DNA from: Pocillopora damicornis
Taxonomy: Eukaryota
Direction: 5' to 3'
NCBI RefSeq assembly: GCF_003704095.1
Contig: NW_020845410.1
Location: 1,426,001 to 1,490,000, forward strand
Length of the DNA stretch: 64,000 nt
Shown here piece after piece: positions 3,531 through 64,000 of this stretch. Made by a program: the position numbers and the translations under genes. Position 1 is the first letter of the stretch; every line of letters begins with the position of its first letter. The notes under the pieces were generated by a model. That model did not search any database and was not told where the DNA came from. It saw only the letters and a program-made list of their open reading frames with translations.

Positions 3531-3616
3531 CCACATAAGAACCAAACGTAACGCCCTAATGTTACCGACCGATCGAAACTAAACAAAAACGACCGATTTA
3601 CATTCTCTTGACTCAC

Positions 3617-3775
3617 ATTCGTTCAGACGAAAGGCTAATGCTCGAAACGTTAGCTTTTAAACTCTCAACGGCGGCCAATTTACGTTATCAATTCAGTTTA
3701 AAATACTAAATTATCCTGTTACACTCTCCCATCCGACGCAGCACCACAGTTTCTTTAGAGACTTACCCCCTTTAT
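3617..3775 (+). mobile_element. Short non-autonomous repeat carrying a degenerate minimal type I hammerhead ribozyme motif (3621..3654)
   Basis: GTT-CAGACGA-A-AGGC-TAAT-GCTC-GAAA-CG-TT-AGC, compared with the CUGANGA..GAAA..NUH core. Sister copies lie at ~58262-58345 and 63010-63273. Confidence 0.7.
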
Positions 3776-9006: not shown

Positions 9007-12000
9007 ATGGTCATGCATAAAACCGAGGCAACGAAAATGAAGCAATGGCGGCTGGCTGCTGTAGGATTTAGCCTTGTAGTTTTACTGCTTGTAGCAAATT
9101 TCAGGTAAGCTATGGAGAGTTATGTTCAAAAATTAAAAATTAGTTTTGAATACGTATTCGAGTTTCCCTTGCTGCCGTAGCATACAGTTCAGGAAAAGGT
9201 CCAAACGTGGTAAAGCACAAGAAAATCAGAGAAAATCCATTGTTATCGATAAGATATCCACTTCAGCTGGTCCAGAAACTATAAACACAAGTTCTGTGGG
9301 TAAGTTCTGTCGGTTGGATGATACGAATTGACATATTCGTAGTTTTTTATTCACTTTACATTAAACTGTATTCGCGTGCCAAAAAATTACTCGAGGAAAT
9401 TTTCAAAATAATATTTAACTTAGCGGTAGATGTTGAAGTGATAAATGCGAATGTGGGTCCAGCTAGTTTACTTCGCCATTTTAATTCTCAAGCAAACATG
9501 TGCAAACGTTGACGTGTCAACATTCTATTCTATGTACTAACAAATAATGTACATTTTTTGTTTCCATGCGTCTGTCAATCGATGGTTCATAGTTACTGTA
9601 ATTATAGTAATAGTTTCAAGTGTGGCAAGAACATTGATGTTTGTAGCAACTCATTTACATGTCATTGAATAAGAATAGCGTCTATTGTGTTATGCCTCGA
9701 TCTTCAAAGCCTCCCGACACGTGTAAGTGAGGCGGACCAAAGTTGCGGGGTATTCTGAAGTTTAGCCCGCATTTTGAGGTCATCAGTGATCTACGGTGTA
9801 TACAACTGAACAGACACATAGCTACATGGGCTAAACTTCAGAATACCCCGCAACTCTGGTCCGCCTCACTTACATGTGTCGGGAGGCTTTGAAGATCGAG
9901 GCATAACACAATAGACGCTGTTCTTATTCAATGACATGTAAATGAGTTGCGGGGTATTCTGAAGTTGCTCCGCTACATGGAAAATAAATTTCTTTAAGAA
10001 TGATTCGGAACTTGTTTATTTTTTATGAGAGCTGAAACAACATGTTGACATATTGTTCTCTCCTTGGTGTGTGCAGAGAATGCAAAGATGATTCCAAATT
10101 CAGACTGTGGGAAGACTGAGGAAACTCAAAGGCTTGCTGAATGTGTTCATTGCAGTGATTATGAGAAGGTAAATCTTTTGCAATGCCCAAGGTCTATGCC
10201 ATCAGTAACCAACAACTTCTCTACAGTACTGTTCATTGTGGTGAATATGCTGAACATGTGAATTAAAATCATTTGTCTCATAATGTAGTCACTTAAGATG
10301 TGGATCATAACATTATGACATTGTGACATTATGCATGATAGGAGTTTTCTTTAGACAATAAGATGGAATGAATTTGCCTCAACTTATCAACTGTCTGTTC
10401 AGCTATGATTGGGTGGAATTTCACAGCTGTGATTGGCAAATTTGGTCAAAATATTCCTTTAGATGGTTCTCATGTTCATGGTGGAATACTTAACTTGTTT
10501 CTCTGACCCACTCTTTCTTTGCTATGTCCTTTACATTCTTTGCACCCCTCAGGGGAAAGGAAACATTTTTTTTTAACAATAAAACTGAAGAATTAATAAA
10601 TACTCAAAAGAAAGCTGGCAAGAAGTTTCTAGTCATTGATCATATCCCAAAAAAACCCTTGATAAATCTTTTTAGTCATTAATCATAACCCAAAATAAAG
10701 AGTAAAACAATCTCTATATACATACCCTTTACCTGTACTTACCTAGGTCAATGTCTGTACTGTAAGTCATGGACCAAGTTTTTTCCACTCAGGTTTACAG
10801 CCCAAGTAGGAAGCACATGGGCCATAAATACGAGCAGAAAAAAATTTTGTAACTTAACCCTTCAACCTCCAAGATCTGATTGCTAATTCTTCCCTCTTGG
10901 TACTGCACATTACCTTGTCAATAAGTTATTAGAATTTGGTGTTAGATCAAGATAAGATCTGCCTGATTATTTTGTTTATTCTTATTACCTGTTTGTTGGA
11001 TAATGCATGGACATTTAGGGGAGAAGTTACATGTTAATCACTTGTGGGAGTTAAAGGGTTAAGTACAGACCAAGAAAACATGGTTAGAAAGATATTTATT
11101 ATTTCTGTGTCAAGTTGGAAGATTTCAATGCAAACAAACTTTTGAGGTTAGCAGACCATACTGTGCGATATCAATTGCTAAATTTACCAATCATGATAAC
11201 CTATGTAACTGAGAGATTTTAAAAACTAAAACAAAAGTCACATATAATCTTCTTATCTAGTGGTAGGTAGGATAAAGCACCTTTTTGATTAATCAACTTT
11301 ATTATCTCTGGGTCAAGTTGGAAGATTTCAATGCAAACAAACTTTTGAGGTTAGCAGACCATACTGTGCGATATCAATTGCTAAATTTACCAATCATGAT
11401 AACCTATGTAACTGAGAGATTTTAAAAACTAAAACAAAAGTCACATATAATCTTCTTATCTAGTGGTAGGTAGGATAAAGCACCTTTTTGATTAATCAAC
11501 TTTATTAACCGTAATTAACCGTAATTGTTCTACAGTATGGTTAGGAACAATTAAACATTGATAAATTGCAACAAGTGTAAAACTTTGTGGGCTGTCTCAT
11601 ATGCAGCAAAACAAAAGTTTGATCATTTTACTCCAATAATGAAACAGCTTATAATAAGCTTCTTCCCATACCTGTGGCTACAATGTTTAAAATCAGGAAT
11701 AACTTAGCTCCCCAGTATTAAACTGAGCTTTCTAAGGTGCATAGATATAACACTAGGAACAAAGACAGCTTAAACTTACCCAAATGCTGCACCTCACTTG
11801 CTCAACAGTCCTTCATACATCGTGAAGCAGGAGTCAGTAACACTGTTCCTTCTAATATCCAGTCTAGTCCCAGTGTAAGCTTATTCAAGTTTAATTTGAA
11901 GAAATATTTATTATCTAAATTTTTAAATAGCTAGTTTTAATCATTATGATGCTCAAGCAATATCATTGTTCTTCTAGTCTTTGTAATTGTATAATTTGTA

Positions 12001-14604: not shown

Positions 14605-17600
14605 TCAATTCGCTGACAAAAGGGCTAATATTTCTGCATTTTCGTAAGTGACAGATGAAGGTGTGCTTTGCAGATCACCACCACTCTCTTTGCTTTTCAT
14701 ATAGTTCTCTGCATCTGTTACCATTGCTTTAGCAACTGTTGCCACAGGTATGGATGTCATCACCAGTTCTAATAACAGAAGAAAACAATCATTGTTGGGA
14801 TAAGAGATGAAATCAGGGTCAAATTCTTTAACCCTATTACTCCCAAATCTAATCATGAACTCTCCTTTTTAACTGCTACACATTTCCTTGTAAATCAGAT
14901 GTGAGCAATAAGATTAGATTAAGGTAACAACTTCTGCCTGATAAGTTTGATTAAATCTCATTACCTGTTTGCTGGATAATGTGTGGATATTAATGGGAGA
15001 AGTTAAATGTTAATCAATTCTGAGAGTTAAAGGGTTAGGAGTACAAAGGACAAAGAGTACAAAGGACAAAAAATGCGAGAACAAGGCCTTAGTAGGCTGA
15101 TGAGCCAAGAGACCTATGGAGCTGCAGGGCATCTAGCCTTTGTGGATTGAGGTGACTAAGAGTAGTCCTGTGGCCCCATTCTCCCCATTAGGAATGGACA
15201 CAAAAATGACAATGATGATGAAGAGTATTACTACTCCTTGCATGGAATGCCTCAGTGTATTGCCTGTCAGGTTACCCACACAGTTTAATCAGGTATTGCT
15301 CACAGTGAAGCAGCACTCATTTAACTCTTTACACCCTAACATCAGAATGCATATTCTTCATACTGTTTTCCACACATTTCTTACAGTGCTTACAAGGAGA
15401 ATTTGACCAACAATCAAGAGCTTCTTTAGTTGGTGATCATTTCCTCCATTCTCCATGGTTAAGGGGTAGTGCAGATGAAAGTAACCCAAGTTGAATATAA
15501 CCTGCTCACTTACTTGCCATCTTCTCTACAAATCTCTGTTTGCTCCCTCGGTCAAGAAAACCAGGTCTAAAAATGCTTGTGTTTGGAAACTGCATGTCCT
15601 TCAATGCATTCTCCACCTGAAAACAGTTTCAAAAAACAGTTATCACTCTGGCCCAAATGTTACTGTTATTGCACAGATTAACAAAGGAAGTATGTAGTGC
15701 TTGTGTGGTGTCAATTCAGGTTCTCTTCTGATTTATTTTTGTATGCATGACAGAGTGAGGTGAAGAAGTGAATATCTCAGGAGAAGACAACAGTTATCAA
15801 AAACATACCTGGCCTTTTGTTTTCAGGTAGAGGAAAGAACTTGAAGCTGATGCACCTTGAGAAGATACTAAGGACACCTGAGGGACATCTGCCTCTTTAG
15901 CAATTTTTGCACAGTTAACCACATAGTCAAAGTCCACATGTTTAAAGGCAGCCTATAAGTATAAATAAAGAAAAAGAAACCTTTCTATGAATTAAATGAT
16001 TTAAGTTACTTCATTAAGAAAACTGACCAGAAGAATGATTGGGAACTTCCAACCAACATAATCTGTAGAATAGGACTGTTCCTGCATGTGACACAGATTA
16101 ATCTCTCCAACCTACAGGTTGGTCATAGTTTGAAAATTTTTCTGAAATTTCTCTCTATTCAACGACAGGTTCATATTGATTTTACACTCTGTCAAATACA
16201 CTTATTATATCTCTGAGTTTGTACGTGCATAGTAATTGGTCATAGCCAATTCACTTTATGGTCCCTAAATTCCCCAGAATGGCCCCAGAGATATAATAAA
16301 TATCGTACTAACCTCATTTTCTTGATCCATATCATAAATTATGCTACGTTGTTTTTTTCTGCAGGAATTAAAGGTCTATGCCCTTCATGGATGGGCCATA
16401 AAATCAGAGCAGAAAAAACTTGGTCTGTAACTTACAATACAAACTTGAACTTAGTTAGAAAGAGGTACCAGTATATTTCATCCACTAGATCTGAGACCAT
16501 AACCCAGAATACTTACAGCAGATCCTGCAGCTCGTCGAGTTGTGCCCAGAGTACAAAAGAAGACATCTTTGTGCTTAAAATGTTCACCAACTGTTTCAGT
16601 GCTTAATTTCTCAAAGTCTGAAGTTAGAGAGAGATAATTTGTCTCAGGTTGGCATACGATATAAAAAATTGCAACTTTGGGAACCACTCAATAACAACAG
16701 TGCTTGAATTTCTAACATGAAAAATATTAAAATATGTGATTTTAGAATATACTTTACCTATGACATGTTGCTCCAGTCTTCCAGATTCCTCTTCAGCTTT
16801 TTGATCCACAGAATATTCTGAAGGGATTGTGGCATTTCTCCGACCCAAAGAAACAACTTTGGATATATTCTGAAATTGTTTATAATCAAGCAATTTTTAA
16901 AACACACAATATACATGGTTTTTAATTTATCACATGATTATCAGTACATGTACATGTTGTTGCCAACTCTTTTAAAAGGTTATAAAATCAAATCAAACTC
17001 TCCCATACTTATTTGAAATAAACTTTTCAATGATAGCCTGCCGAGTTTAGAAATTAAAATCAATCTTTAATCAATAGTATTTTTAAATTACTTTGACTGT
17101 TGTACTACTGCATTCTACGACAAAAAAGGCAAACAAAGAAATGACAGGAAATATTCAGCTTATCATTTACCTTCCGTGATTTTAAAGCATTCCAAATACA
17201 CTCTGAAATTAAATCGACTTATTCAAAGATTGAGATTACCAACGATTAGACTTCTAAATATTCGAAAATAAAAATAAAATAAAATAAATATTTTCATGCA
17301 CTGAGAGCTCAAAGATTGCATTATAGCAAAAGAAAAATGGTAAAAAAAAATAGCAATGACGGTATTTTTAAACTTTTGAACATACACAGTGTAAGGTTAC
17401 TAAAAATAAATTATTGTTCATTTATTACATAAATGGGTCACGCCATGATCAAATAGTTGTGAAATAACTACTGAAAATATCACGATATAATCGTTTGAAA
17501 GGGATTATTCTCGCAGAGGCGAACCTTAGAGTTTAAAAGTTCTCCCAGCAAATGTTCTCCGATAGCTCCAGTAGAACCGATCATAACAGCCCTCATACCC

Positions 17601-24507: not shown

Positions 24508-24950
24508 GACTGACTGTCTGACTGGTTGACTGACTGATTGAGTGACTGATTGTCTGACTGACTGATTAAGTGGCTGACTGGACTGACTGGTCCACTGAGT
24601 TAATGTTTGACGGATTGACTGACTGAACTATCGTCTTACTGACTAACTAAATGACTTACTTGCTGACTGTCTTAATGATTGAGTAATTGTCTGAGTGACT
24701 AACTGAATGACTTACTAACTGACTAACTGACTTACTGACTGACTCACTGACTGACTGACTGGCTGACTGACTGATTGGCTGACCGACTGACTGACTGGCT
24801 GACTTATTATTAGTGATTGGCTGACTGACTTACGGACTGAATGACTTAGTCGCTCACTCACCTACCCACTGACTCGCTTACTCACCAGCAAACTCACTCA
24901 CTCACTCATTGACGGATTGGCTGACTAACTGATCGACTGGAGGATTGTCT

Positions 24951-24984
<34 letters not shown>

Positions 24985-25085
24985 GTGGCTGATTGATAGA
25001 GTGACTGACAGCTGGCTGACCAAGAACCGACCACGTACTGGTTTGCCGACCTACTGGCCAACTGAAAGAATGGATGAATGGATAA
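24508..25085. repeat. Long degenerate (GACT/TGAC)n tetranucleotide microsatellite
   Basis: About 570 bp of gactgactgact variants with an internal (CTCA)n patch. Confidence 0.95.
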
Positions 25086-46505: not shown

Positions 46506-46900
46506 AGGGTCTCAATAGGGTTAACCGTGAGCCGGAAAACAGCCAAAAATTAGCCGTCAGGTGTAAGCAATTGACAAATTTAACACTATAACCCCTAAGA
46601 GTGACTAACATCTTGATTCTCCTTACAACATCACCCTTGAATCAAACATTAAGGTCATGAGAATAAAGGAAATGATCACCAACTAAAGAAGCTCTTGATA
46701 GTAGAACAAATTCTCCTTGACAGAACCCTTGGAAATGTCTAGGGAGTAGTAAGGAGAATACGGATACTGATGTTAGTCGTAAAAAGAAAACAACCGTAAA
46801 ACAATTTCTGGTGACAACAATGGGAAGATATCAACCGTTAGCCCAAAATTGGCCAAAATTTTAACCGTTAGCCGTAAAAGCCATCACTCCATTGAAACCA
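46506..46900. mobile_element. MITE with aaccgttagcc subrepeats containing a nested family B MITE (~46590-46777)
   Basis: Termini ggtctcaat...attgaaacc, with repeated aaccgt(g/t)agcc. The internal segment is the reverse complement of the 55610-55823 family. Confidence 0.65.
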
Positions 46901-47164: not shown

Positions 47165-50100
47165 CTATACATCAGCCAGTTTTAACCATTTTTCATACAG
47201 TTCATCCTTTTCTTTTCGGAGTTCTGCCATCTTCACTCGAAGCTCACTCAATTCTGTTTTCATCTCATCACAATCTCGTTTTATCTCTGCCGCTTTGTCT
47301 TCATTAATTGAGTCAATATTTTTCTCTGTGCAGAGTCTAGTGTCCAAGAGTTTTTGATAGTTATTTCCGTCAGTACGAATATTCTTCTGGTAATTCTTAA
47401 TGAGCGATTGCAACGACTGACAAGAATTTTGCAGCGCGTGGGATTCTTCCTTCAACTTACACTCCGCGATGTTAAGGAAATGTATGAGTGCCTCTACGCT
47501 ATCGATGATTATCGCACTGGAGGGATCTAGTTCACATGTCCTACGATAGTATTGAACAAGAAAACCAAAATCACCACGAATTTTGCTCAGTCTTGTCACT
47601 ACATCCAAGAAACGAGTAAGCTGATCACATGCCTGGTCTAGTTGTTTCTTTCTTTCGCTTGAACTTCCACCTTGAGGAAATTGAGTCCAGGGTTTTGGTA
47701 ATATTTCCTTATGACTATTCCTTAAAGGAGCAGCGTCCGTGTTGACGGGGGCGGCCCTGTTCTGATTCAGACTGCTGCTGACTGACTGAGCAGATGGCTC
47801 AGGAATATCAACGCTGTTGCTCATAGAGGACCTTCTCACAGTGGCAAAATGAAGACGTTGCACCAAGGGATACACAGGAGTTGGTTGTGGCGCCACAGAA
47901 ACACACTGAATGCTAGGTTGCTGCCAGCCTGACGGTGAAATGAAAGGGATTGCTACTAAAGGATAAAACCGCTGGAGACTTGCTGGGGGTGTTTGAGGCG
48001 GCACCGTATTCACAGTAACAGAATTTCCTGATTGTGGCAAACGGCTTTGCTGTGCGTTGACAACTTCTACTGGCCTGACGTTTGAAGACGCCATACTGTG
48101 GGATAGTGGAAGATTACCTGAAGGATGCATGTTTGGGCTGCTCAACGGCACGACGATGGAATTCCCTGTATGTGCCGTGGTTATTGCAGGCCTGACATTT
48201 GAATACACCACACTAAGGGATGGTCGCAGATTACCCGAAGGATGCGTGCTTGGGCTGCTAAAAGGCATGACAATAGGGTACATTGTTTGTGCCGTGGTTA
48301 CTGCTCGCCTAACGTTTGAAGACGTTATATCTGGAGATGTTCGCAGATCGACCGGAGGAAACAGTTTGGGGCTGCTCAAAGGCATGCAGACGGAATCCCT
48401 TGTACGTAACGTGGTTACTGAGGATGACAAACGGCATTGTTGTTTTTTAACGTCTTCCACTTTTACTGGCCTCACGTTTGGAGAGGCTGCTCTAACAAAG
48501 GGTTGCAGACTATCTGGGTTGCTTAAAGGCGCGACAATGGGATTTCCTGTTTGCACCGTGGCTATTGAGGAAGGCAAACGGTAATGTTGTGCGTTGGCGT
48601 CTTCTAATTTGACAGGTCTCACTTTTGAAGACGCGTCACTAGGAAATGGTCGCAGATTGCTCGAAGGATGCATGTTTGGGCTGCTCGATGGCGCGACAAA
48701 AGAATTTCCTGAATGAGCCGTGGTTATTGAGGATGGCGAATAGTACTGTTGTGCGTTGGCGTCTTCTACTTTTACTGTCCTCACGTTTGGAGACGCAGCA
48801 CTAGGAAATGGTCGCAGAGTTGCCGAATGGTGCATGTTAGGACTACTGAAAGACAACGAACTCATCTCTTTTACAGTGTTTATTTGAGTAACTACATCAT
48901 GAACCTTATGAGGCACACTATCTGATGCTGACGTCTTTCTGTAATTGGATGCCTCAGAAGAAACACAAGAAAAAGACGATTCTTCATTGGCCGTAGCTGA
49001 AAATGTCCGGTTACAGTTATTTTTATTCGCTTGTTGAGGTATTACCCCAGGTAATGACAAGCCATGAGAGGATCTTTGTTGTTTCAACGGACGGCTTGGC
49101 ATTTCAGGAGGAACTGCGTAACGCTGATTACTATCTGAATGGCTGGAATTTTCACCACTGCCAGTTATCAACCCTGATGAGAGCGTAAGGCAAGGAGTGG
49201 CCACTTGAGAAGTCGATGTTGCCACGTGCATTGGCTGCTGCAATTCTCCCTCTCCCAGGAAACAAGTAACTTTGTCTGCAGGCATGTTTGAAGACACTTT
49301 ACCTTTATTCAATGCAACAGGCATAGAACCTAGAGAGAAAAGAGAGAATAGAAATGTAAAGTAAGAAAAATAATTCTAAATCAACAAAAGATATAATTGA
49401 ATGGGAAGAAGAACCACAGTAAATAGTATAAGAGAGATGGTAACTTTTGAGGTCGGTAAAGAAATAGAGAAAGATGTTTTTCGTCTTGTCACGAGCGTGG
49501 GACAAAGAAAAAATTCAGAGTCCCCGTGAGGAATCGAACATCAGAGGTTCGCATTCCGCGCACCTATGCTCTACTACCGAGCAACAGAGACTCTAATGTG
49601 AGCGAAGCCTATAACGAAGTTCATATGACACGAGTCCTGCATAATGCTTGGATCAGCATATGTCGATAGCGTCATGTTCGTAAATAGAATAAGAGAGAAG
49701 AACCACAGTGCGCTTAAATCCTGGGTCAAACAATTGAGTTAACCAATTGGAAAATAGTACAGTCCATTTTTAAAAATATCCTTTTCCCTACTGACCAGGA
49801 TGGGATCTTGCAAGATTCTTCTTTCTTCCAGCGCTAACACTCATTCTTGCCGCGTTCTTTACCCTTGGATCACGTCGCTTGACTTTACCGCATCTCTCTC
49901 CACTTGTGCACCCAAGACAGGTACTAGAACAACACCTGCTTGTAATCAAAATTCGTCTAGATTTCCTCTGTGTGGAGTCTCCTGACACATCATGACCCAC
50001 TCTCTTCTTGCCAAGGTGTTTTGCAGCAGATGGCAAATACTGTATTGAAAATCCAACATTCCCTGGCAATGGAATACACTTTCCAACATCAATTTCATCC

Positions 50101-51590: not shown

Positions 51591-51775
51591 TTGCGCAACA
51601 GCAGGTACCCTTAAAAATTTCAACAAAGCCAACATGACAAATGAAATTTTATTTTCATGGATATGGAAATTAGCTCATGATTTGCCACAGATAAGGCAGT
51701 TCCAACTAAACCATTGAAAAAACTTTTGCTTTAACGAGCAGAGTCAAGCGTACCTTGTTGTTATATATTTTCCTG

Positions 51776-52399
51776 ATGAATGCGGATTACGATTATTTGT
51801 TTAAACTTCTCCTGATAGGGGACTCCGGCGTTGGAAAATCATGTCTCCTGATCCGCTTCGCAGACGACACGTTTACGGACAGTTTTATAAGCACAATAGG
51901 AGTGGACTTCAAAATAAGGACCATTAATGTTGAGGGAAAAATCGTTAAGTTACAAATTTGGGACACTGCTGGACAAGAGCGCTTTCGCACGCTAACGACA
52001 GCTTATTATCGAAGCGCACACGGGATCATCATGGTATATGATGTGAATGAAAAGGAAACTTATTTACACATCGATCAGTGGCTGGAAGAAATAGAAAGAT
52101 ATGCTTGCGGCGGAGTGAACAAACTTCTTGTGGGAAATAAATGCGATTTGTTGGGTAAACGCCAAGTTGAGTACGAGGTGGCCAAAAGTTTCGCGCAAAG
52201 ACTTCAGATTTCGTTCATTGAAACAAGCGCAAAGGACAGAACCAATGTTGACAACGTGTTTTATACAATGGCGGAAGAACTAAGAGAGAAGCTTGGGTCA
52301 CCCCTGACTTCTCCCGATGGTGGAGGTGAAAATTTAAGCTTGAAAGACAGTACTCCGGTTAATACAAGTAACTGGCCGAAATGTTGCAGTTTTTCATGA
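51776..52399 (+). CDS. Intronless Rab1-like small GTPase, copy 1 (207 aa)
   Basis: [54 protein letters not shown]-terminal CCSFS. The ATG at 51776 aligns with the Rab1 start. Confidence 0.93.
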
Positions 52400-53332
52400 T
52401 TGAGTGGTAGTACTTGCGATTGTTACGAATAATAAAAAGGCTCGATATTTGCTCATAAACAAGACAATCACTTCAAGAGAGATTACGATTAAAAATATTT
52501 GTCTTCAAGGAGTATGGTGAAACTGTAACCTGCATGCGCAACCACTAGGAAAGTGTAGTGTTGTATTGGAAGTAAGGGACATTGTAAAATGGGTAAAGAA
52601 ACACTTTCGAAAGCTTCCATTGGAAAATCAAAATTCTTGAGAAAGACAAAGTACTATTCAATACATAATTGTGGAAGGAATATGGCTTTCAAATGTTATA
52701 TGCAAAAAGGGAAAAATTTTTAGTTTTTGGACAGATACAGTTTGATTTCAACATTTTGGGTAAATTCCAAGTGCGTATATGTGTTTTTATCATTGTTATT
52801 ATTATTAAAAATAACAAAAGATGAAAAGTAGGGATTCAGACTGACCAAGTTAATATTTTGCAGCTTTAATATTGGGAATTGGAGGAGGTCTTTTATTACC
52901 AACTAGAACGAATCTCTAGCAACAACTATATCGGAAAATCTAGAATTTACATCGACATGAAAGTACTGACGCTTTACCTTGCATGATAGTTGGCCGTTTT
53001 GGTAGGCAAATAAAAAAGCAAAATATGCAATGTCAGGAGGATTTTTCCAAGGGTTAAGGCTCTCCATCTCTCTTAGGAGGTGCACAGGAGTTAATCAGTT
53101 GGAGGATATAAGGTTCAAATGATCTTCTTTTTAAGGGCCTCTGGGCTATATATATTTGCATGTGTGCATATTATATTGTGGCACTGGACCGCAAAATATA
53201 TTCACTGACAGCCGGCATATAAATCGGCAAGAAGCCAGTGTTAAGAGCTATTCAGTTTTCAGTTATTTCTGGTTCAGATGAACGACAAACCCCAACGACT
53301 GCGTTCAGAGACAAGACAGAGATCTCTTCGTA

Positions 53333-53971
53333 ATGAATTCTGATTACGATTACTTGTTCAAAATCCTTGTGATAGGCGACTCTGGTGTTGGAAAATCGTG
53401 TCTACTGATGCGCTTCATAGACGACAAGTTCACAGAGAGTTTTATAAGCACCATAGGAGTAGACTTCAAAATACGCACCATGAATGTGCATGGAAAAATT
53501 GTCAGACTACAGATATGGGATACCGCAGGACAAGAACGTTTTCGTTCGATTTCGGCGACTTATTACCGGAACGCGCATGGAATCATCTTGGTCTACGACG
53601 TCAATTGGATGGAAAGTTTTTTGCACATCGATCAATGGCTAAAAGAAGTCGAACGAAACGCAGGAGCCAGAGTAAGCAGACTTCTTGTTGGAAATAAATG
53701 CGATCTGGAAGGTAAAAGACAAGTTGATTATGAAGTGGCAAAAAATTTCGCTGATGACATTGGGGTTTCGTTCGTTGAAACAAGCGCGAAAAATGACACT
53801 AACGTCGATATTGTTTTTAACACAATGGTGGAAGAACTTAACGAAAAGTTGGCGAGTGGTTTACCTTTAATGGCCACTTCTCCCAACAATTCGGCCAAAA
53901 GTTTAGGTTTGAACGACAATCAGTTACCTGCTGAATCAACTAGTCGGCAGAAATGCTGTAGTTTTTCCTAA
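53333..53971 (+). CDS. Intronless Rab1-like small GTPase, copy 2 (212 aa)
   Basis: All G1-G5 motifs are intact, C-terminal CCSFS, tandem paralog of copy 1. Confidence 0.93.
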
Positions 53972-54551: not shown

Positions 54552-57500
54552 ATGAGCGATATTGTAGAGCTGCAAAGTCCTGATGGAGATCATGCAACTA
54601 TTCAACTTCACGGCAAGGGGATAATTATGAGAATTTTGTGTGCTGTTCATCACGTGAAAGAACTCCTTAGGCACCATCTGTCGTTTGTTGCTCCAGTGAA
54701 ATATTCGTCGGAGAGAGAACTAGCTGCAAGGGGAAAGAGAATTCCGCGTCTCCCAAATTCCGGATGAAAAAAAAAAATGGACTATACCCTGACAATCAAA
54801 TCAGCGTATTCCAGACTTGAGTGGAAAGCTTCCCACTTAAATTAACTCCGGTTTTACGTTGAATTAACTGTTTTCGAGAGAGTTTTTTCTTTCTTCTCTA
54901 TGTTAAGTTTTCTGTCCTAGTAACTTATGTTAACAGGTTAATATCAAGTGCATTTGTTATGTCAATCTGCGACTTGTAGCTAAAATAATAATGATTGGGT
55001 TGGTATGATTTCTACAGGTGCAACTGTGACGTCATGGAAGTGCAAAGGACGGGAAATGCTGTTTGTAAGGTAAATAATTCAAATTCTTCCAAACCTTTCC
55101 ATCTAGCGATACCAGCAGACTGGCAAAAAACTTGATTAGCTCTTTTTTAAAATATTACCAACGTTTGACTGAAAGAAAATAAAAACTTTCCTTTAGAAGC
55201 CACTCATTGTGACATGTTTTATAATCGATCTTTCATAATTTATTTTTTAACAGTGAAAAGGCGGTTTTTGACAAGAAGAAGGCGATCAGAGGCGGTATTC
55301 CAGTAGTGTTTCGTAAGTAATAATCGTATATTGTGAGGACAGGAATCAGCTGCTATATATTGGAAGCTAATCCAGTCAAATTTCACGTGAAGAATATAAT
55401 GCTTTGAAAGAGCCAGGATCAAGATTGCGATGTAATTTATGCTGTTGCAATATGTCTTGAGGAACGAATCCTAGAATGGTTTCTGTTCAACAGCAAACTT
55501 TGGACCATGGAGTCTTGGACCTCAGCATGGATTTGCCAGAACTAGCCAATGGCACATCAGCCAACATCCAAAGGTTTGGAAAAAAATCAAATGGGCCTTG
55601 CAATTTAACCTAACCCTCTACACTTGAACTTCAGTATGTATATTCTCCATACCATTCGCTAGTCATTTCCTAAGGTGCTGACAGGGAGAATTTGTTTAAC
55701 AATCAAGAGCCTCTTTAGTTGGTGATCATTTCCTTTATTCCTGTGACTTTGATGTTGGATTCAGGGGTGATGTTGTAAAGAAAAATTAGATGCTAGACTT
55801 ACTCTTAGGGGTCAAAAGGGTTAATTCACTTTCTATGTTAAGCACAGATGTAGGGGAGATATTTGGAAGACTGGATGGCTAACAAATTGTACATCAGTTT
55901 AATCAAAGGAGATGGAGGTTATTTCCATAGGTATCAGGATAGGTCTGTGGTATCTCAAAGGATTTAAATTCATTAGGTGCTCATTTTTTCAAGGAAGAGA
56001 ATGGTGAAACAAGAGCAGTGTTTTCTCTAGAGGACAGTGAAAGTACAAGACAAATGTGGGATTATAAGTAAGTGTCCCACTCTTATCATGGACCCAGTAA
56101 GGTGCTTGGGTTTGTTGTTGTTGTTTTTTTTTTTTTGGCAGGTGCAAATATTTATTTTGGAATCTGGTAACTTTTAAAATTTTTTTTCCCTGTGAGACAT
56201 TTCTCTTAAAATTCCACAATTATTACTCTTGAAGGTTTAGGGTTCTGTATGAAGTGACTGTGGGAAAGCAGCATTTAAAAACCACCATCACTGTTGAAAA
56301 CAAAGGTAAAATAAAATGTTCTAGATAAAAAAAAACCAAGGATACAAATACAACATTAGTAACATATTTTTAGTTAGTTGTCTAGATTAACAGCTACTGC
56401 CTGTTATTTTTCTAAGCATTTATTTTATCCTGGATTAAAAACACTGTTGTCAAAATCAGGTCAGTCAAATTTTAAAAATATTTCTGAAGGTGACAATGAT
56501 GTTGGAAACCTTGGAAAATATGTTAAGTTACATTGAATGAACTTTGACCATTGGTTTAACTAATTAATTTTGATTAATGCTGACAGAAGTGAATGAAACC
56601 ATCTTTGTTAGACCTATTTAATAAATATTTTAGGATCTTCATTTGAATTTTTCATACAATTCAAACTAGACAGTTTGCATTCGTGATCTTTGCAGACGAG
56701 AAAGCCTTTGCCTTTACCACCCTTCTACACACTTATTTACGAGTTCCTGATGTTACCCAAACGACAGTTTCTGGATTAAAGGGCTTAAACTATGTTGATA
56801 AGGTGAGTGTTCCAACTTTAATTAATGCTTTTTTGAGCTGAGTTTAACAGGGAATATACACAGCCTCATGTCTGAACCCTCTAACTCCCAGTAGTGATTA
56901 ACATGTAACTTCTCCTTATTGTATCTACACACTATCCAGCAAACAGGTAATGAGAATACTCAAACTTATCAGGTGGAAGTTGTTATCTTACTCTGACATC
57001 AAATTCTTGAAACTAATTTACAAGGAAATATGTAGCAGCTGGAGGAGAGAATTAACAACCAGAACTTGGGTTAACCTCTCAAGTCCTAAGAGAGAATGTT
57101 TATTTTAGTGTTTTAGTGCTGAGTACTCTGAAATTATTCTTTGTAGGTTCTTGGTGGAAAAACATTCACAGAAAGCAATGAACCTGTGAAAATTAATGGG
57201 TTTGCAGATAGGTAAATAAATGTAAATAAATGTAATTTTACCTAAATTGTCAAATTGAAATTCAGACACATTGTATGCATAATTTCATTGGCAATTCTTG
57301 ATCAATTTTTTTTTTTCAATTTCCATAATTTGAAAATCTAGTCATGACTAATAATAACCTGAATAGAACATTACTTAGAATGAAAAGGTTCATATGTGAG
57401 CTGAGAAAGCATTTGTTATTACATCATTTGATTAAAGGCACTCATGCTACTTGTCTAACAATTAGGCTGTACCATATGGGTGAAAGTTTTCTTTTCTTTT

Positions 57501-58261: not shown

Positions 58262-58345
58262 TTTCTAATGTAGGGCTAACACCCCAATCATCAGCTTTAG
58301 AAATCCTTCATGGGAGCCAATTTACGTAATTAACTCAGTTGAAAA
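58262..58345 (+). repeat. Degenerate copy of the hammerhead-bearing repeat
   Basis: ctaatgtagggctaacacc...catcagcttt...gccaatttacgt...aactcagttga aligns with 3624-3700. Confidence 0.6.
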
Positions 58346-59341: not shown

Positions 59342-62300
59342 TTATAATCCTTCAAATATCAAGTCAAGGGCAGCTTGGACGTTACCACCAGTAGCAGTGA
59401 GAGCCTGGATACTGAGTGCATCATCTGTGATTCCCATATCTCTGAGTTGCTGCAACTGTGACTGGAAATATTCCAAAAATGGTTATCACTTATCTTTATC
59501 AACTGATAGATTAATAAGTAGCTCACACATATGTGTGAAATAGTATCAGTTACACTCATTAAAATTATTATGATCTAAAATTAAAAGTTATAATAATTGT
59601 TTCAATGACTCAAAAGGGCTGGGATCTGAACAACCATATAAGTAAATTTGTTGGAATGTGAACAAAAATTGGAATACATTAAATTAAGGAGGTCTTGATG
59701 GGAGTTAGAAGGTGACAAATATCACTTAATGAAGTTGATATAATTATTGCAAAGAAATGTTTAAAGTCAGAATGATGTGATGCAAAAGTTCACGAACCAA
59801 CAGCAGTGTCCGATAAATTCAATAGAGATTATTCCTTTCTAATTGAATGGATTCACAAGTAACAATCAAGTTAAACAGAAAAAAATAACTTAATATCGAT
59901 ATTAGTCCCCAGAATGTCAACAGTGAGATCAATGAGTTTCTAACCTGAAGCTGAGATGATTGCTGAGAAATGTTCATGACAGATGCCACCGCTTCACTGA
60001 CCATATCTCTTGTTATGGTTGGTCGTGAACTTGACGCTCTTGTACCTCTACTTGTTGATGGGATGACTGGTGAGAAAGCTGATGTTGAAGCACCTCTGCT
60101 TGTGGATGGCCCAGCTAAAAAAGTGAATTACATTTCCCTTAAAATACAATACAGTCAAGCCTTTATGGCCAATCCTATGGGAAATATCAACTTCTAGTGA
60201 TACCAGCAATTATGTAGTGGAAAAAATTATAGTTTGCATGGAAAAAAGGAGTTTCTTCATCCTCTCACCCATAATGTAGTTGTTGCTTTTGTACACATCA
60301 CATCTTCTTGAAAACAAATAGTGTGCATGCCATCAGAATTCAATGTAACCAACAATCAGAGCTCAAAAGGATTATTGTGTCAGCACACTGTACATACATG
60401 ACAGCATAATTTTGAACTAATACCCTCACTTACATCTTTTATTTACAAAGGACGCTGCACAAACCTTCACTGCGTGTTGAAGAACCTGGAGAAATTCCTG
60501 CATTAGCTAAAGCCGATGATAATAATGATGATGTGACTGGTTGCCGAGATGATGATGCTCCTCTTGAGGCCGCAGCAGATCTTAATGCTTGGATACTCTC
60601 TTCATTTGCTGCCACCAGTTCAGCTTGAGCAACAAGCTATGGATGAAAGATAATACTCAAATTAACATCTAATAAAAATTTTAGATGTGATAGGACACAA
60701 AACATGATATCTCACCCCTGGATCCATGCCTCGCAGTTCATCATCAGAATCATATGTGTCACCAGCCATGTGACTCCTGGTGGAATGTTTACCTACCCCT
60801 CCCTCCTTGGCAATTGCTGCAGCAATGTAGGAAGCTGCCTGAACCAGGCTTGGATGTTCTCGCATTACCCTGTAAAAGATAATTACAAAAAACTTCAGTT
60901 GGTAACAATTTGCACAGAGAGTTCAAGATCACATTCAATTTATGGCTGTTATTAAAACTATTGAAAGGTTATTGTAAAACAAGAAGACAGAAATTCGTAA
61001 ACAGTGAACAACTTAGAGAGAAAAGTTAATTTCACTTACGTCTCAACGTTTGCTGTCTGTACAAGTTGTTCAAGAAGTTCAGGATCTTGAAGAAGAGCTA
61101 AGAATTACATGGAAAAACATAAGCATATAAAGTGATTCAAATGTTTTAACTTTATTCTTCAGTAGCACAGAAATAAAAAGAAATAAAAATTAATTAAAGA
61201 AGAACCAAAAATAAGTAAATTACAGTAAGAGAAAAAGGATTAGCATTTGGGCAGAAAAACATTTAAAATGTCTCAGAAGAGATCATTAACTACAAGGAAG
61301 GTCAACAATGTATATGTATGGTACATGAATAACGACCTATTATCAGAAATTGAGAAAGGTGTTTTTTGTCTTGTCATGTGTGTGGGACAAAGAAAAAACT
61401 CTGAGTTCCCTTGAAGAATCGAACCTGAGACCTCTGATGCTCTACCACTGAGCCACAGAGACCCTACAGTAAGTGAGGTCTATTACGAAGTTCACATGAC
61501 ACACATCCTGCATACTGCTAGGATCAGCATTGTCAATAGCATCATGTTTGTAAAGAATAAAAGAGATGGTAAGTTTTGAGCTTGGTAAAGAAATTGAGGA
61601 ATATGTTTTTTGCCTTGTCACAAGTGTGGGACAAAGAAAATAATTCTGAGTTCCTGTTAAGATCAGAACATTAGAGGCATTATGCAGGACACATGTCATA
61701 TGAACTTTGTAATAGACCTTGCTCACTGTAGAGTCTCTGTGGCTCAGTGATAGTCTAGTGGAGCATCAGAGCATGAAATCAGATATTCACCAAGCTCATA
61801 TTCTTTACATACAACCTATGATGTACACAAATATTACATAGAATTTAAATTTGGTTGATAAGTAGTGAGGGATGCTGAGGCCATGTGGTTGTAGTGTGTG
61901 GGCTTGGATCACTAAGTCCAGGGTGATTCAACCACTAACTAGGTTCTTATGTTGGATTCTTTGGTAAGTCACTACTGTCAGAGGATATTTCTCCACCTAG
62001 GATTATCAATGGGTACCTGAAAACTGTTAGGAAAACCTGGCAAATTAAAGGACAAGGGGGGTGACTTTGCAATATGCTGGTATCTTGTGCAAGGGTAATT
62101 AACCATACTATCACAGCATGAACCCTCTGCCTTATAAGCTGACATTATGTCATAAACAGTTATAACAATTCATTGTAATCAGAAATACTCACTCATAGCA
62201 ACATGATCAGATGATAATCCTGGAGTGGCTACAGTCAGTTGTTCAAGCATGTCTGGATTGGTAAGAATTTTTTCAACCTGACAACAACAACAAAAAAAAC

Positions 62301-64000
62301 AGTTGAATCAGAAAAAAAATACTTTTCACTCCGAAAGTTTTTTTTATGAAAAACAGCAAAATTTTCAAGAGATCTGAAACTTACTGTATTTCTGTAGGAA
62401 GGGCTCTTGATGGCTGCCTCTAAGACAGGGATCACTTCAGTGATTGGCACATCATCTGAATCAAGTTCTTTTGGGTGAAAAATTAAATGACATTAAACAA
62501 AAACCATGGATGTGTTTGCTTTAATTAACAATACTATATTAAGAAATTGAACTGAAAAAAATTAAAATAATTAGGAAGTGGCCTCTATATACCAAGCTAT
62601 AAAGAAGAACAGACATTCACAATTAAAAGTAGAGAGTCTACCTCTGTAGCATTCTTTGTCTCAGAAATATTCAGAATTTACAATTTCTGACCCAAGGTAT
62701 TTCATAGCATCCAACATGAATTAAGTATTAAGTCTATTCTAACACTAGATGAGCTAAGGAGCTCAAGCGCATAGGAAAAAGGTCTCATTGTACTAGCTCT
62801 GTACTTTATCTAGTTAGGTGATCTTGCCTCACTTGTTTGAAAGGGGATAAAACCCTCTCCACTGGATTTATTACTATCCAGCCTGAAACTGTCCACAGAA
62901 CAAACCAGATGGCAATTGATCTACTGCTTGTCTAATCATCAAACAACTTAACTTGGATGACTGAATTTTCCAAACATAACTTGATACAACCTGACTTCCT
63001 GAATAACTGAATAAAGGGGGTAAGTTTCTAAGGAAACTGTGGTGCTGCATCAGTGGGAGAGTATAGCAGGTAATTTAGGGTTGATAACTGAGTTGAAAAT
63101 GTAAACTGGTCACTATAAAGAGTGAAAAGGCTGACATTTCAAGTATTAGCTCTTTATTTGAGTGATTGTCCCCAATTCCTCCGACAAAGGGCTAATGCTC
63201 GAAACATCAGCCTTTTCAATCTTTACGGTGGTCAATTTATGTTTTCAACTCAGTTGTTAACACTTAATTACTTACTTCCTGAATAACTGCCTTTAATTTG
63301 GCAAGCACATATATTCTAAAAAACAAATGCGTCATTTTCACCTATGGGTTCTGGTTCAGGGTTCTTTATCATCACATAAATAGTAAATCCATCTTTGATT
63401 CCATAAGAGTCCAGAGTTTTCTCGTCCTTAAGCAGTTCTCCAGCAAATATAAAATCTAAAGAAGACAATTTATAGCTTCAGTGAATCTTTCGTATGGGTC
63501 AACAAAGTATAAAATATAATTTGTAAATCTTACATCTCAATACTTAAAATATCTGATAACCATCTTAAAATACAAGGGATCTGATATAATATTTACAACT
63601 ACTTGATGAGCTAAAACATTTTCAACAAAATAAAAAGATTTCCTTCGATCGAGTGTTTTCTTTGGTATTTTTACAGTTTCCCGGCATCCACGACAGCTGC
63701 ACGCTTGTTTCACAATGATGTGTTCCTTGACTTTTCTTATTGACCGCTTTTAAATGAAAGATGGCAGACTGGTTTTTTTTTTCAAGCATCAAATAGAGAA
63801 GTTTTATGGAGGAAATGAGAGGATATAGTGGTAAAAATAGACACTTTTATGGGTTAAAAAAGTCCAATGATCATCTCACTCTGCTGGTCAATCGGTATGT
63901 TCGTCTTCGCTGCTGCCTTTTCCTTCAATTCCTCAACTTTGCAACTTAACTCGATGTCATCAATGATATGCTTAGTATTGTGATAAGCTTCTTTGATTCG
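59342..64000 (-). CDS. UBL7: Ubiquitin-like protein 7 (UBL + UBA domains), 5' end outside the window
   Basis: Exons >64000-63880, 63455-63342, 62455-62385, 62277-62193, 61097-61040, 60869-60716, 60636-60465, 60114-59945 and 59461-59342. UBL domain IPIDQQNFIFAGELLKDEKTLDSYGI; VATPGLSSD; UBA domain QLQQLRDMGITDDALSIQALTATGGNVQAALDLIF. All match human UBL7. Confidence 0.92.
61345..61780. mobile_element. tRNA-derived repeat: ~1.2 tandem units followed by an inverted partial unit
   Basis: Homologous to 49421-49695 with a different start point. gtgggacaaagaaaa occurs twice, and ~61680-61780 is the reverse complement of part of the unit. Confidence 0.85.
61865..62145 (+). mobile_element. Decayed tRNA-headed SINE (different family)
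   Basis: A-box-like ggccatgtggttgtagtg head, followed by a ctccacctagga..aatgggtacc core. Confidence 0.5.
63010..63273. mobile_element. Inverted pair of hammerhead-bearing repeats flanked by a 16-bp TSD
   Basis: TSD acttcctgaataactg at 62994-63009 and 63274-63289. Minus copy ~63012-63166; plus copy ~63175-63270 with CCGACAA-A-GGGC-TAAT-GCTC-GAAA-CA-TC-AGC. Confidence 0.85.

Follow-up and report, generated by a model that had tools for sequence, protein, structure and literature searches.

The window analysed here comprises 64,000 nucleotides of the Pocillopora damicornis genome (assembly GCF_003704095.1, contig NW_020845410.1, positions 1,426,001 to 1,490,000 of the forward strand), and it contains two insertions of a short repeat with a tRNA-like module (Table 1). 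Insertion 1 lies in the sense orientation within a spliced host intron of 466 nt and is bounded by an exact target site duplication (TSD). The insert is composed of one 261-nt period plus a 14-nt overlap, with 13 of 14 bases identical between 49421-49434 and 49682-49695. An earlier note on this DNA had described a 14-bp TSD, a 275-bp insert with the tRNA-like module and its T6 run in mid-unit, and the lack of a poly(A) tail, and all of this was borne out. The terminal redundancy that it reported is also present as far as the 14-nt overlap is concerned, but the fifteenth base is in fact the first base of the TSD. Both junctions of insertion 1 were covered by contigs of three other samples, which, together with its location in a spliced intron, means that it is no assembly artefact; an empty-site allele was not found in the four runs examined.

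Table 1. Features of the two insertions and of the host intron (window coordinates).
Feature	Position	Strand	Basis
TSD, left copy, 14 bp	49407..49420	.	exact match
TSD, right copy, 14 bp	49696..49709	.	exact match
Insertion 1: 5'-truncated, 1.05 units, u244 round to u2, 3' end at the distal site	49421..49695	-	end mapping
Conserved block u16-55, likely hammerhead stem I/II scaffold without catalytic core; includes the hairpin of the earlier note	49626..49666	-	sequence comparison
Stem II equivalent in insertion 1	49635-49652	-	
tRNA-like module u90-162, A and B boxes, decayed in insertion 1	49519..49591	-	mapping; ARAGORN/Rfam on other copies
T6 run directly 3' of the tRNA-like module, resembling an RNA polymerase III (Pol III) terminator (putative function)	49508..49513	-	sequence
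Block u187-250, resembling the 3' tail of a Poseidon-like pseudo-LTR	49431..49494	-	score 39, reached by 2/2000 shuffles
Proximal 3'-end zone u204-226, passed over in insertion 1	49455..49477	-	family end mapping
Distal 3'-end zone u250-u10, holding the 3' end of insertion 1	49419..49431	-	family end mapping
Host intron, GT-AG, with insertion 1 inside in sense orientation	49328..49793	-	spliced contig (run X18), flanking open reading frames
Direct arm of insertion 2, 325 nt (1.25 units), from u157 round to u221, ending at the proximal site	61345..61654	-	end mapping
tRNA-like module of insertion 2, direct arm	61462-61404	-	
Insertion 2, inverted arm: u34-131, 106 nt, head-to-head with the direct arm	61677..61782	+	end mapping

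Insertion 1 is 91% identical to the majority sequence of its family. We think it probable that it is a decayed copy of an abundant, protein-less 260-nt repeat, likely moved by the reverse transcriptase (RT) and endonuclease of a Penelope-like element (PLE) and likely derived from the pseudo-long terminal repeat (pseudo-LTR) of a Poseidon-like PLE. Genome searches gave 1,391 candidate loci with a full-length query and 1,583 with a two-unit query, and stretches picked without regard to the element contained 3 insertions in 189 kb and 7 in 568 kb, which scales to roughly 3,000 copies in 234 Mb. Through several anchors we gathered 240 nonredundant insertions, whose positions were assigned on a majority unit of 260 nt (coordinates u1-260, with tRNA +1 at u90 and ends read in the tRNA sense). 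The end statistics refer to 198 of these, left after removal of L001-L030, which came from the full-length query and were biased to the permutation seen in the window, and of insertions touching N; TSDs were counted in the 228 insertions without N. The unit had no match in viral contigs, and the one match in bacterial genomes was limited to the search pattern. Contigs of RNA runs labelled as coral hold unit sequence from copies of many kinds; they give neither ends nor strand and are no evidence on expression.

Collecting the copies, mapping their breakpoints on the unit and tabulating their TSDs yielded two fixed 3' zones, scattered 5' ends and TSDs of 8-14 bp. As many as 233 of 268 3' ends fell into two zones about 45 nt apart that together make up 17% of the unit, 152 of them in the proximal zone and 81 in the distal one. 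The zones were drawn on a first sample (117/140) and then held in a fresh sample (116/129). The 5' ends were scattered round the unit. Free circular permutation, as envisaged in the earlier note, is thus contradicted by the fixation of the 3' ends at two sites, and the length of one turn plus a redundancy is not special, since 14 insertions measured 251-270 nt against 11.2 expected. Insertions longer than one unit numbered 70 of 198, in keeping with the previously proposed template of more than one unit. Head-to-head insertions likewise numbered 70 of 198, and no other inverted arrangement was found. These 70 pairs joined a proximal to a distal end in 48 cases, two proximal ends in one and two distal ends in one, the other 20 having an end outside the zones. 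TSDs of at least 8 bp occurred in 53/228 insertions (1.8% for mismatched flanks) and TSDs of at least 10 bp, 74% AT, in 33/228 (0.25% in the control).

Insertion 2 shows the same structure in a head-to-head form. The earlier note had described this second locus as running for more than one unit before inverting, and mapping of the two arms agrees with that description; the outer end of the inverted arm falls outside both 3' zones, and no TSD was found. The note had further remarked that the two loci begin at different points of a circle. The points do differ, but they are 3' ends of the element and not starts, and the difference is accounted for by insertion 1 being distal-ended and insertion 2 proximal-ended.

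At the 5' side, the break rate climbed with AT content from 0.0055 to 0.0157 per nt. An excess of 5' ends at u163-175 was weakly replicated (15 vs 8.6), and a spike was present at u126-127; given the dependence of the break rate on AT, we did not take either as a site of RNase Z cleavage or of RNA modification. Copy ends at sites of RNase P or RNase Z, the enzymes that the earlier note had suggested for monomer processing, found no support, because ends at the tRNA head numbered 5 against 10.5 expected and those in excess near T6 go with AT content. An RT stop at m1A58, noticed post hoc in the first sample (10 vs 3.5), was rejected when a retest fixed beforehand gave 5 vs 5.1. A depletion of 5' ends at u61-108 was also absent in the retest (20 vs 26.6, P 0.12). 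No 3' tail of poly(A) or simple repeat was seen in the family, in a comparison confined to its own copies and not extended to the 3' ends of long interspersed nuclear elements (LINEs) of this genome. The claim that the element is not an ordinary short interspersed nuclear element (SINE) was upheld, as just 4 of the 140 pieces reaching the tRNA head stop there.

The association with Penelope elements and the likeness to retrozymes, both put forward in the earlier note, were reinforced by the two 3' ends, the 5' truncation, the partial tandems and inversions, the TSDs longer than 4 bp and the absence of any open reading frame (ORF). In the portion of PMC8557442 available to us, the features of PLEs include truncation at the 5' end, partial tandems, a 5'-truncated copy in inverted orientation and an optional tail of 30-40 bp that is often present at one end only. 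According to the corresponding sections of PMC11167929, the tail of a Poseidon element corresponds to the stretch that separates two internal RT start sites, AT-rich DNA is cleaved and extended on both strands, a dimer is predicted, and PLE insertion proceeds without hammerhead cleavage.

The genome itself contains many PLEs, with 145 RT matches and seven PF01541 matches, six of which adjoin RT-like or PLE-like ORF pieces. One family, Neptune-like, has an extra cysteine motif before the nuclease; 47 of its 59 3' ends lie in two zones 59 nt apart, and its 13 head-to-head insertions included 10 proximal-plus-distal and no same-type pairs. Another family has no such motif, and we infer that it is Poseidon-like; it shows two 3' ends, mixed pairs in 5 of 8 cases, and TSDs of 9, 11 and 13 bp. 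Six other GIY-YIG loci had no sequence in common with the unit. In one single insertion (L071:8947-9348), an inverted unit that ends at the proximal site makes up the left arm, whereas the right arm starts as the unit, changes over to a Neptune-like pseudo-LTR within 3 nt of microhomology and terminates at the distal site of the PLE. Such a clean chimera implies that unit RNA and Neptune-like RNA took part in one event.

A few observations on these PLEs stand by themselves. Among Neptune-like pseudo-LTR pieces (L008-L146 plus the window), 35 of 64 begin within 27 nt upstream of the hammerhead core; the tRNA-bearing unit shows no such 5' pile-up, which upstream divergence of subfamilies could also explain. 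In L061 and L065, belonging to another Neptune-like PLE, a canonical hammerhead retrozyme-like sequence lies by a (TA)n tract 300-450 nt past the ORF stop. The rebuilt target site of insertion 1 (49410-49420 + 49710-49719) resembles, by eye, about 20 nt of the L062/L066 PLE 3' end, probably by chance.

A metagenome scan brought up 120 loci, of which 106 (set A) belong to a sister family with a 261-nt unit, about 80% identical to the coral unit; nine (set B) have the same majority sequence, and five were set aside (four matching the pattern only and one a 39-nt stretch). In the sister family, 101/113 3' ends fall in the same two zones, head-to-head pairs are mixed in six cases and same-type in none, and 2/113 copies stop at the tRNA head. 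The hairpin region pointed out in the earlier note is fully retained, with 40/40 nt of u16-55 identical between the two families, compared with differences at 5/11 and 18/37 sites in neighbouring blocks. At u156-195, which is partly a search anchor, 1/40 sites differ, and in the tRNA module 25/74.

We screened 17 PLE 3' regions against the unit, and the Poseidon-like pseudo-LTR matched it in two colinear blocks flanking the tRNA module. Block one (u6-56) aligns with the minimal hammerhead of this PLE and contains an exact 14-mer (0/2000 shuffles); block two (u187-250) aligns with its tail, and here the proximal ends of element and PLE fall at matching positions. The colinear two-block score of 72 was reached by 3/1500 shuffles, that of the sister family by 18/1500. 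Stem II reads GACT/AGTC in 29 of 36 PLE copies and TCCT/AGGA in 95/148 and 47/62 unit copies, so that PLE and unit differ by two double-sided changes. Stem I is kept, and relative to the PLE hammerhead the unit lacks the two single-stranded halves of the catalytic core. The unit thus appears to be a probable, if remote, homologue of the Poseidon-like pseudo-LTR, and the conserved hairpin is likely the stem I/II scaffold of the PLE hammerhead with its catalytic core deleted.

In accordance with the earlier note, the family majority has no CTGANGA core on either strand. The unrecognised ribozyme or pseudoknot that the note offered in its place did not fare as well: the proposed pairing is likely real, but TCCT/AGGA folds as a plain hairpin matching hammerhead stem II. 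The combination of hairpin and pseudoknot was rejected, as it is not the minimum-energy fold and does not recur in the PLE homologue. Judged by eye against consensus features, u16-55 did not fit an HDV-like, pistol or twister fold either. Folding z-scores were -1.9 for u16-55 and -0.2 for u5-60. Rfam reported no hammerhead in the unit, a weak negative because it also misses the minimal hammerhead of the PLE itself.

The tRNA-like module of insertion 1 retains an acceptor stem with 7/7 pairs, two of them G.U. However, its anticodon stem is broken and its A box carries three changes from the family majority, and for this reason ARAGORN and Rfam detect no tRNA in the window. The assignment comes from other copies, with ARAGORN calls in 27/44 loci and Rfam tRNA scores of 33.8-49.2 bits in 4/4 loci; the anticodon loop is nonstandard, ARAGORN leaving it undetermined in 25 of its 27 calls. 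Both families have retained the A and B boxes. Between the two families the tRNA stems show five compensatory pairs (three in the T stem and two in the anticodon stem), and three stem pairs are broken in the sister family. This is a difference between two lineages rather than many independent events, and it could have arisen from the capture of a different tRNA gene. Because T6 comes after the promoter boxes and before the RT start zones, we infer that a Pol III transcript terminating there could not have served as template.

A second, distinct tRNA-like repeat family was also encountered (L042:1654-1800, L036:1143-1286, L313, L082, L112, L127, L280 and L321). Its tRNA part is followed by a T-run, its copies have a 3' end in common and some are paired head-to-head, and it is probably another element of the same kind.

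We suggest the following course of events. A Poseidon-like pseudo-LTR would have acquired a tRNA-like gene and T6 between its hammerhead and its tail, and the halves of the hammerhead core would have been lost, stems I and II being retained, probably as a handle for the PLE protein. The template would be an RNA that is longer than one unit and favours no particular 5' end. A PLE dimer would then introduce nicks, 8-14 nt from each other, in the two strands of AT-rich DNA, and cDNA synthesis would start internally on the RNA, at two sites separated by about 45 nt. If one strand primes, a simple 5'-truncated copy such as insertion 1 would result; if both do, the product would be a head-to-head copy in which a proximal end is combined with a distal one. 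The 5' joints would form at AT-rich cDNA ends, which would make "one turn plus 14 nt" a single point on a continuum.

As to the form of the template, copies do not stop at tRNA heads (4/140 at the first head, 1/7 at the second), which implies that it is multi-unit or circular; seven pieces start sharply at u89-91. We lean toward a linear multi-unit transcript, give less credence to a closed circle, and find template jumping quite improbable. Two units were reached by 0/240 sampled insertions, copies of 567, 614 and 828 nt being found by targeted search only. The break rate doubles past about 270 nt (0.0163 vs 0.0080 per nt), and variants are common to two turns of one insertion in 9.6% of cases, compared with 3.0% between insertions. 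No clear 5' transduction of host DNA was found (2 distant TSDs vs 0.8 expected). The scarcity of multimers, the rise in break rate, the shared variants and the lack of transductions fit a circle and linear multimers alike. In the 3.2-unit arm of L408:1885-3015, units 1 and 2 share a T-arm deletion and units 2 and 3 a 2-nt deletion, a pattern that would be consistent with duplication of one unit-length segment.

A number of observations weigh against movement by, and descent from, a Poseidon-like PLE. The copies are old (median identity 90.7%; 1/238 pieces at 97% or above), TSDs were found in just 53 of the 228 insertions, and a transcript would have to pass the internal T6. No intact ORF was seen in the Poseidon-like family, Pfam names neither L530 fragment, and the status of the family as a PLE rests on similarity to RT and GIY-YIG pieces. 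As regards the sequence match, its discovery after a screen of 17 PLE 3' regions means that the shuffle P values need an approximately tenfold correction, and the single blocks of the sister family are not significant (151 and 230 of 2000 shuffles). The distal zone lies 5-15 nt past the aligned PLE end. Pseudo-LTR profile scores did not exceed 10 bits, with matches to the hammerhead block in 6/233 pieces and to the tail block in 3/233 (reversed controls below 5 bits), and two of the three tail-block matches lie on the opposite strand. Finally, 0/240 unit copies adjoin the Poseidon-like family, and adjacency to the Neptune-like family is not enriched (4/233 vs a background of 0.86%).

Alternatively, the same PLE partner could copy a 260-nt RNA circle, released when RNase P cleaves at one tRNA head and at the next, and closed by a host ligase, with the tRNA fold replacing the hammerhead. 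Such a circle would agree with the lack of any position acting as a 5' barrier (4/140 and 1/7), the scarce genomic multimers (0/240 at two units), the doubling of the break rate after about one unit, the variants shared by turns of one insertion (9.6% vs 3.0%), the lack of clear 5' transduction, the five compensatory tRNA pairs and the seven pieces starting at u89-91, but every one of these points also fits linear multimers. Moreover, there is no one-unit spike (14 vs 11.2), ends at the RNase P site are not in excess (5 vs 10.5), the A58 stop failed to replicate (5 vs 5.1), and the indels of the 3.2-unit copy fit one later duplication and not three laps. RNase Z, too, is expected to cleave RNA with a tRNA-like module of this kind. 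We consider this route rather doubtful. A more specific version of it, a retrozyme without catalysis in which the core is deleted, the stems are a docking site for the Penelope protein and the tRNA fold runs monomer release and circularisation via RNase P and ligase, seems unlikely to us; if true, it would represent a ribozyme-free, tRNA-mimic route to circular retrotransposon RNA, unseen by hammerhead-based searches and widespread in corals.

It also seems unlikely that the Neptune-like PLE (L131/L092 type), which is the more abundant one, is the partner in place of the Poseidon-like family. The chimeras in L071 and L131 do join the unit to a Neptune-like pseudo-LTR within one insertion, the tails have a 9-mer and flanking bases in common (position-constrained P 0.007-0.027), and the two-end rule is the same. 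However, whole-versus-whole and two-block scores are at chance, the lack of enriched adjacency applies here too, 4 of 10 Neptune-like TSDs measure 15-17 bp as opposed to 0/53 unit TSDs above 14, and the two Neptune-like ends are 59 nt apart. As an ancestor of the unit, the Neptune-like PLE was rejected, the sequence match being at chance level. A conventional tRNA-headed SINE, moved by a LINE and with its tandem pieces made later, would have in its favour the A and B boxes kept in both families, the TSDs of 8-14 bp and the seven pieces that start at the tRNA head, but 136/140 pieces continue past that head, T6 precedes the 3' part, no poly(A) or simple-repeat tail is present, and the two 3' ends follow an opposed pairing rule. 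The end pattern and the run-through at the head already contradict this explanation, which we regard as very improbable. We would say the same of spread as a satellite or by DNA-level rolling circles of the Helitron type: the head-to-tail continuity at every position and the one copy with a likely DNA-level unit duplication point that way, but the copies are dispersed and mostly shorter than two units (the longest has 3.2, although arrays may be collapsed in the assembly), and the long TSDs, the fixed 3' and variable 5' ends and the inversions already speak against it. Helitrons are not known to make TSDs.

Besides the two insertions, the window contains Neptune-like pseudo-LTR pieces at 3616-3775, 58264-58341 and 63010-63271, the last being head-to-head with a 16-bp TSD. 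A large exon of the host gene (47165-49327, minus strand) includes coding repeats of 117 and 162 nt. An intronless Rab1-like ORF of 229 aa, named by eye, occupies 51710-52399, and its neighbour at 53327-53852 is 76% identical. A 305-bp palindrome lies at 9646-9950, a near-perfect tandem duplicate of 203 bp at 11095-11507, a tract of (GACT)n at 24508-25020, and two more short dispersed repeat families of 130-200 nt at 10745-11067, 14873-15045, 15322-15453, 46591-46776, 55611-55812 and 56872-57069.

Among known systems, animal non-LTR retrozymes (PMC7229834; bioRxiv 10.64898/2026.07.22.740005), as characterised in the parts of these reports at hand, share with our element a 150-450-nt unit without ORF, a head-to-tail arrangement, TSDs longer than 4 bp, occurrence in corals and a proposed origin from PLE pseudo-LTRs. 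In contrast to them, the present unit has no hammerhead core, carries a tRNA-like module with T6, and occurs in copies of mostly 0.3-1.9 units, whereas retrozyme arrays are given as up to 62. The schistosome elements Sm-alpha and Sj-alpha (PMC6765202, PMC2770079), likened and set apart here by their partial descriptions, have a tRNA-related Pol III-type promoter in a tandem unit, SINE-like character and multimeric transcripts; Sm-alpha has an active hammerhead, and our unit only the stems. Penelope/Poseidon PLEs such as PAc of Anolis (PMC11167929, PMC8557442) are similar, in the sections available, in their two 3' ends with an optional tail, their truncation at the 5' end, their partial tandems, the 5' copy in inverted orientation and the AT-rich targets; the unit differs in having no ORF, a tail of about 45 nt instead of 30-40, a tRNA-like module and a disabled hammerhead. 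MRC1 and other putative nonautonomous Chlamys elements (PMC8557442) are, in the corresponding part of that paper, head-to-tail, similar at the 3' end to an autonomous family, and members of a clade described as without canonical hammerheads. They are algal, however, that same part does not mention a tRNA module, and the partner in our case appears to be a PLE with a C-terminal endonuclease.

The element, then, works like a nonautonomous PLE; membership among the retrozymes fails on the hammerhead, and membership among the SINEs on the head and the tail. In the literature searched, to which Repbase and Dfam did not belong, neither this family nor any PLE parasite that bears a tRNA and lacks a hammerhead was described; the family may already be catalogued in those databases. 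What is likely new is the invariance of a hammerhead that is likely disabled, along with the upkeep of the tRNA fold and the rule that a proximal end pairs with a distal one.

The hammerhead serves both to define retrozymes and to find them. A PLE-derived element that lacks the core but maintains a tRNA fold would be overlooked in hammerhead searches and classed as a SINE or as tRNA pseudogenes. The element also supports the in vitro result that PLE insertion does not need hammerhead cleavage, and its invariant 40-nt block is likely a protein-binding signal. Lastly, the 48:1:1 ratio among head-to-head insertions is genomic evidence for asymmetric use of the two RT start sites by the two target strands.

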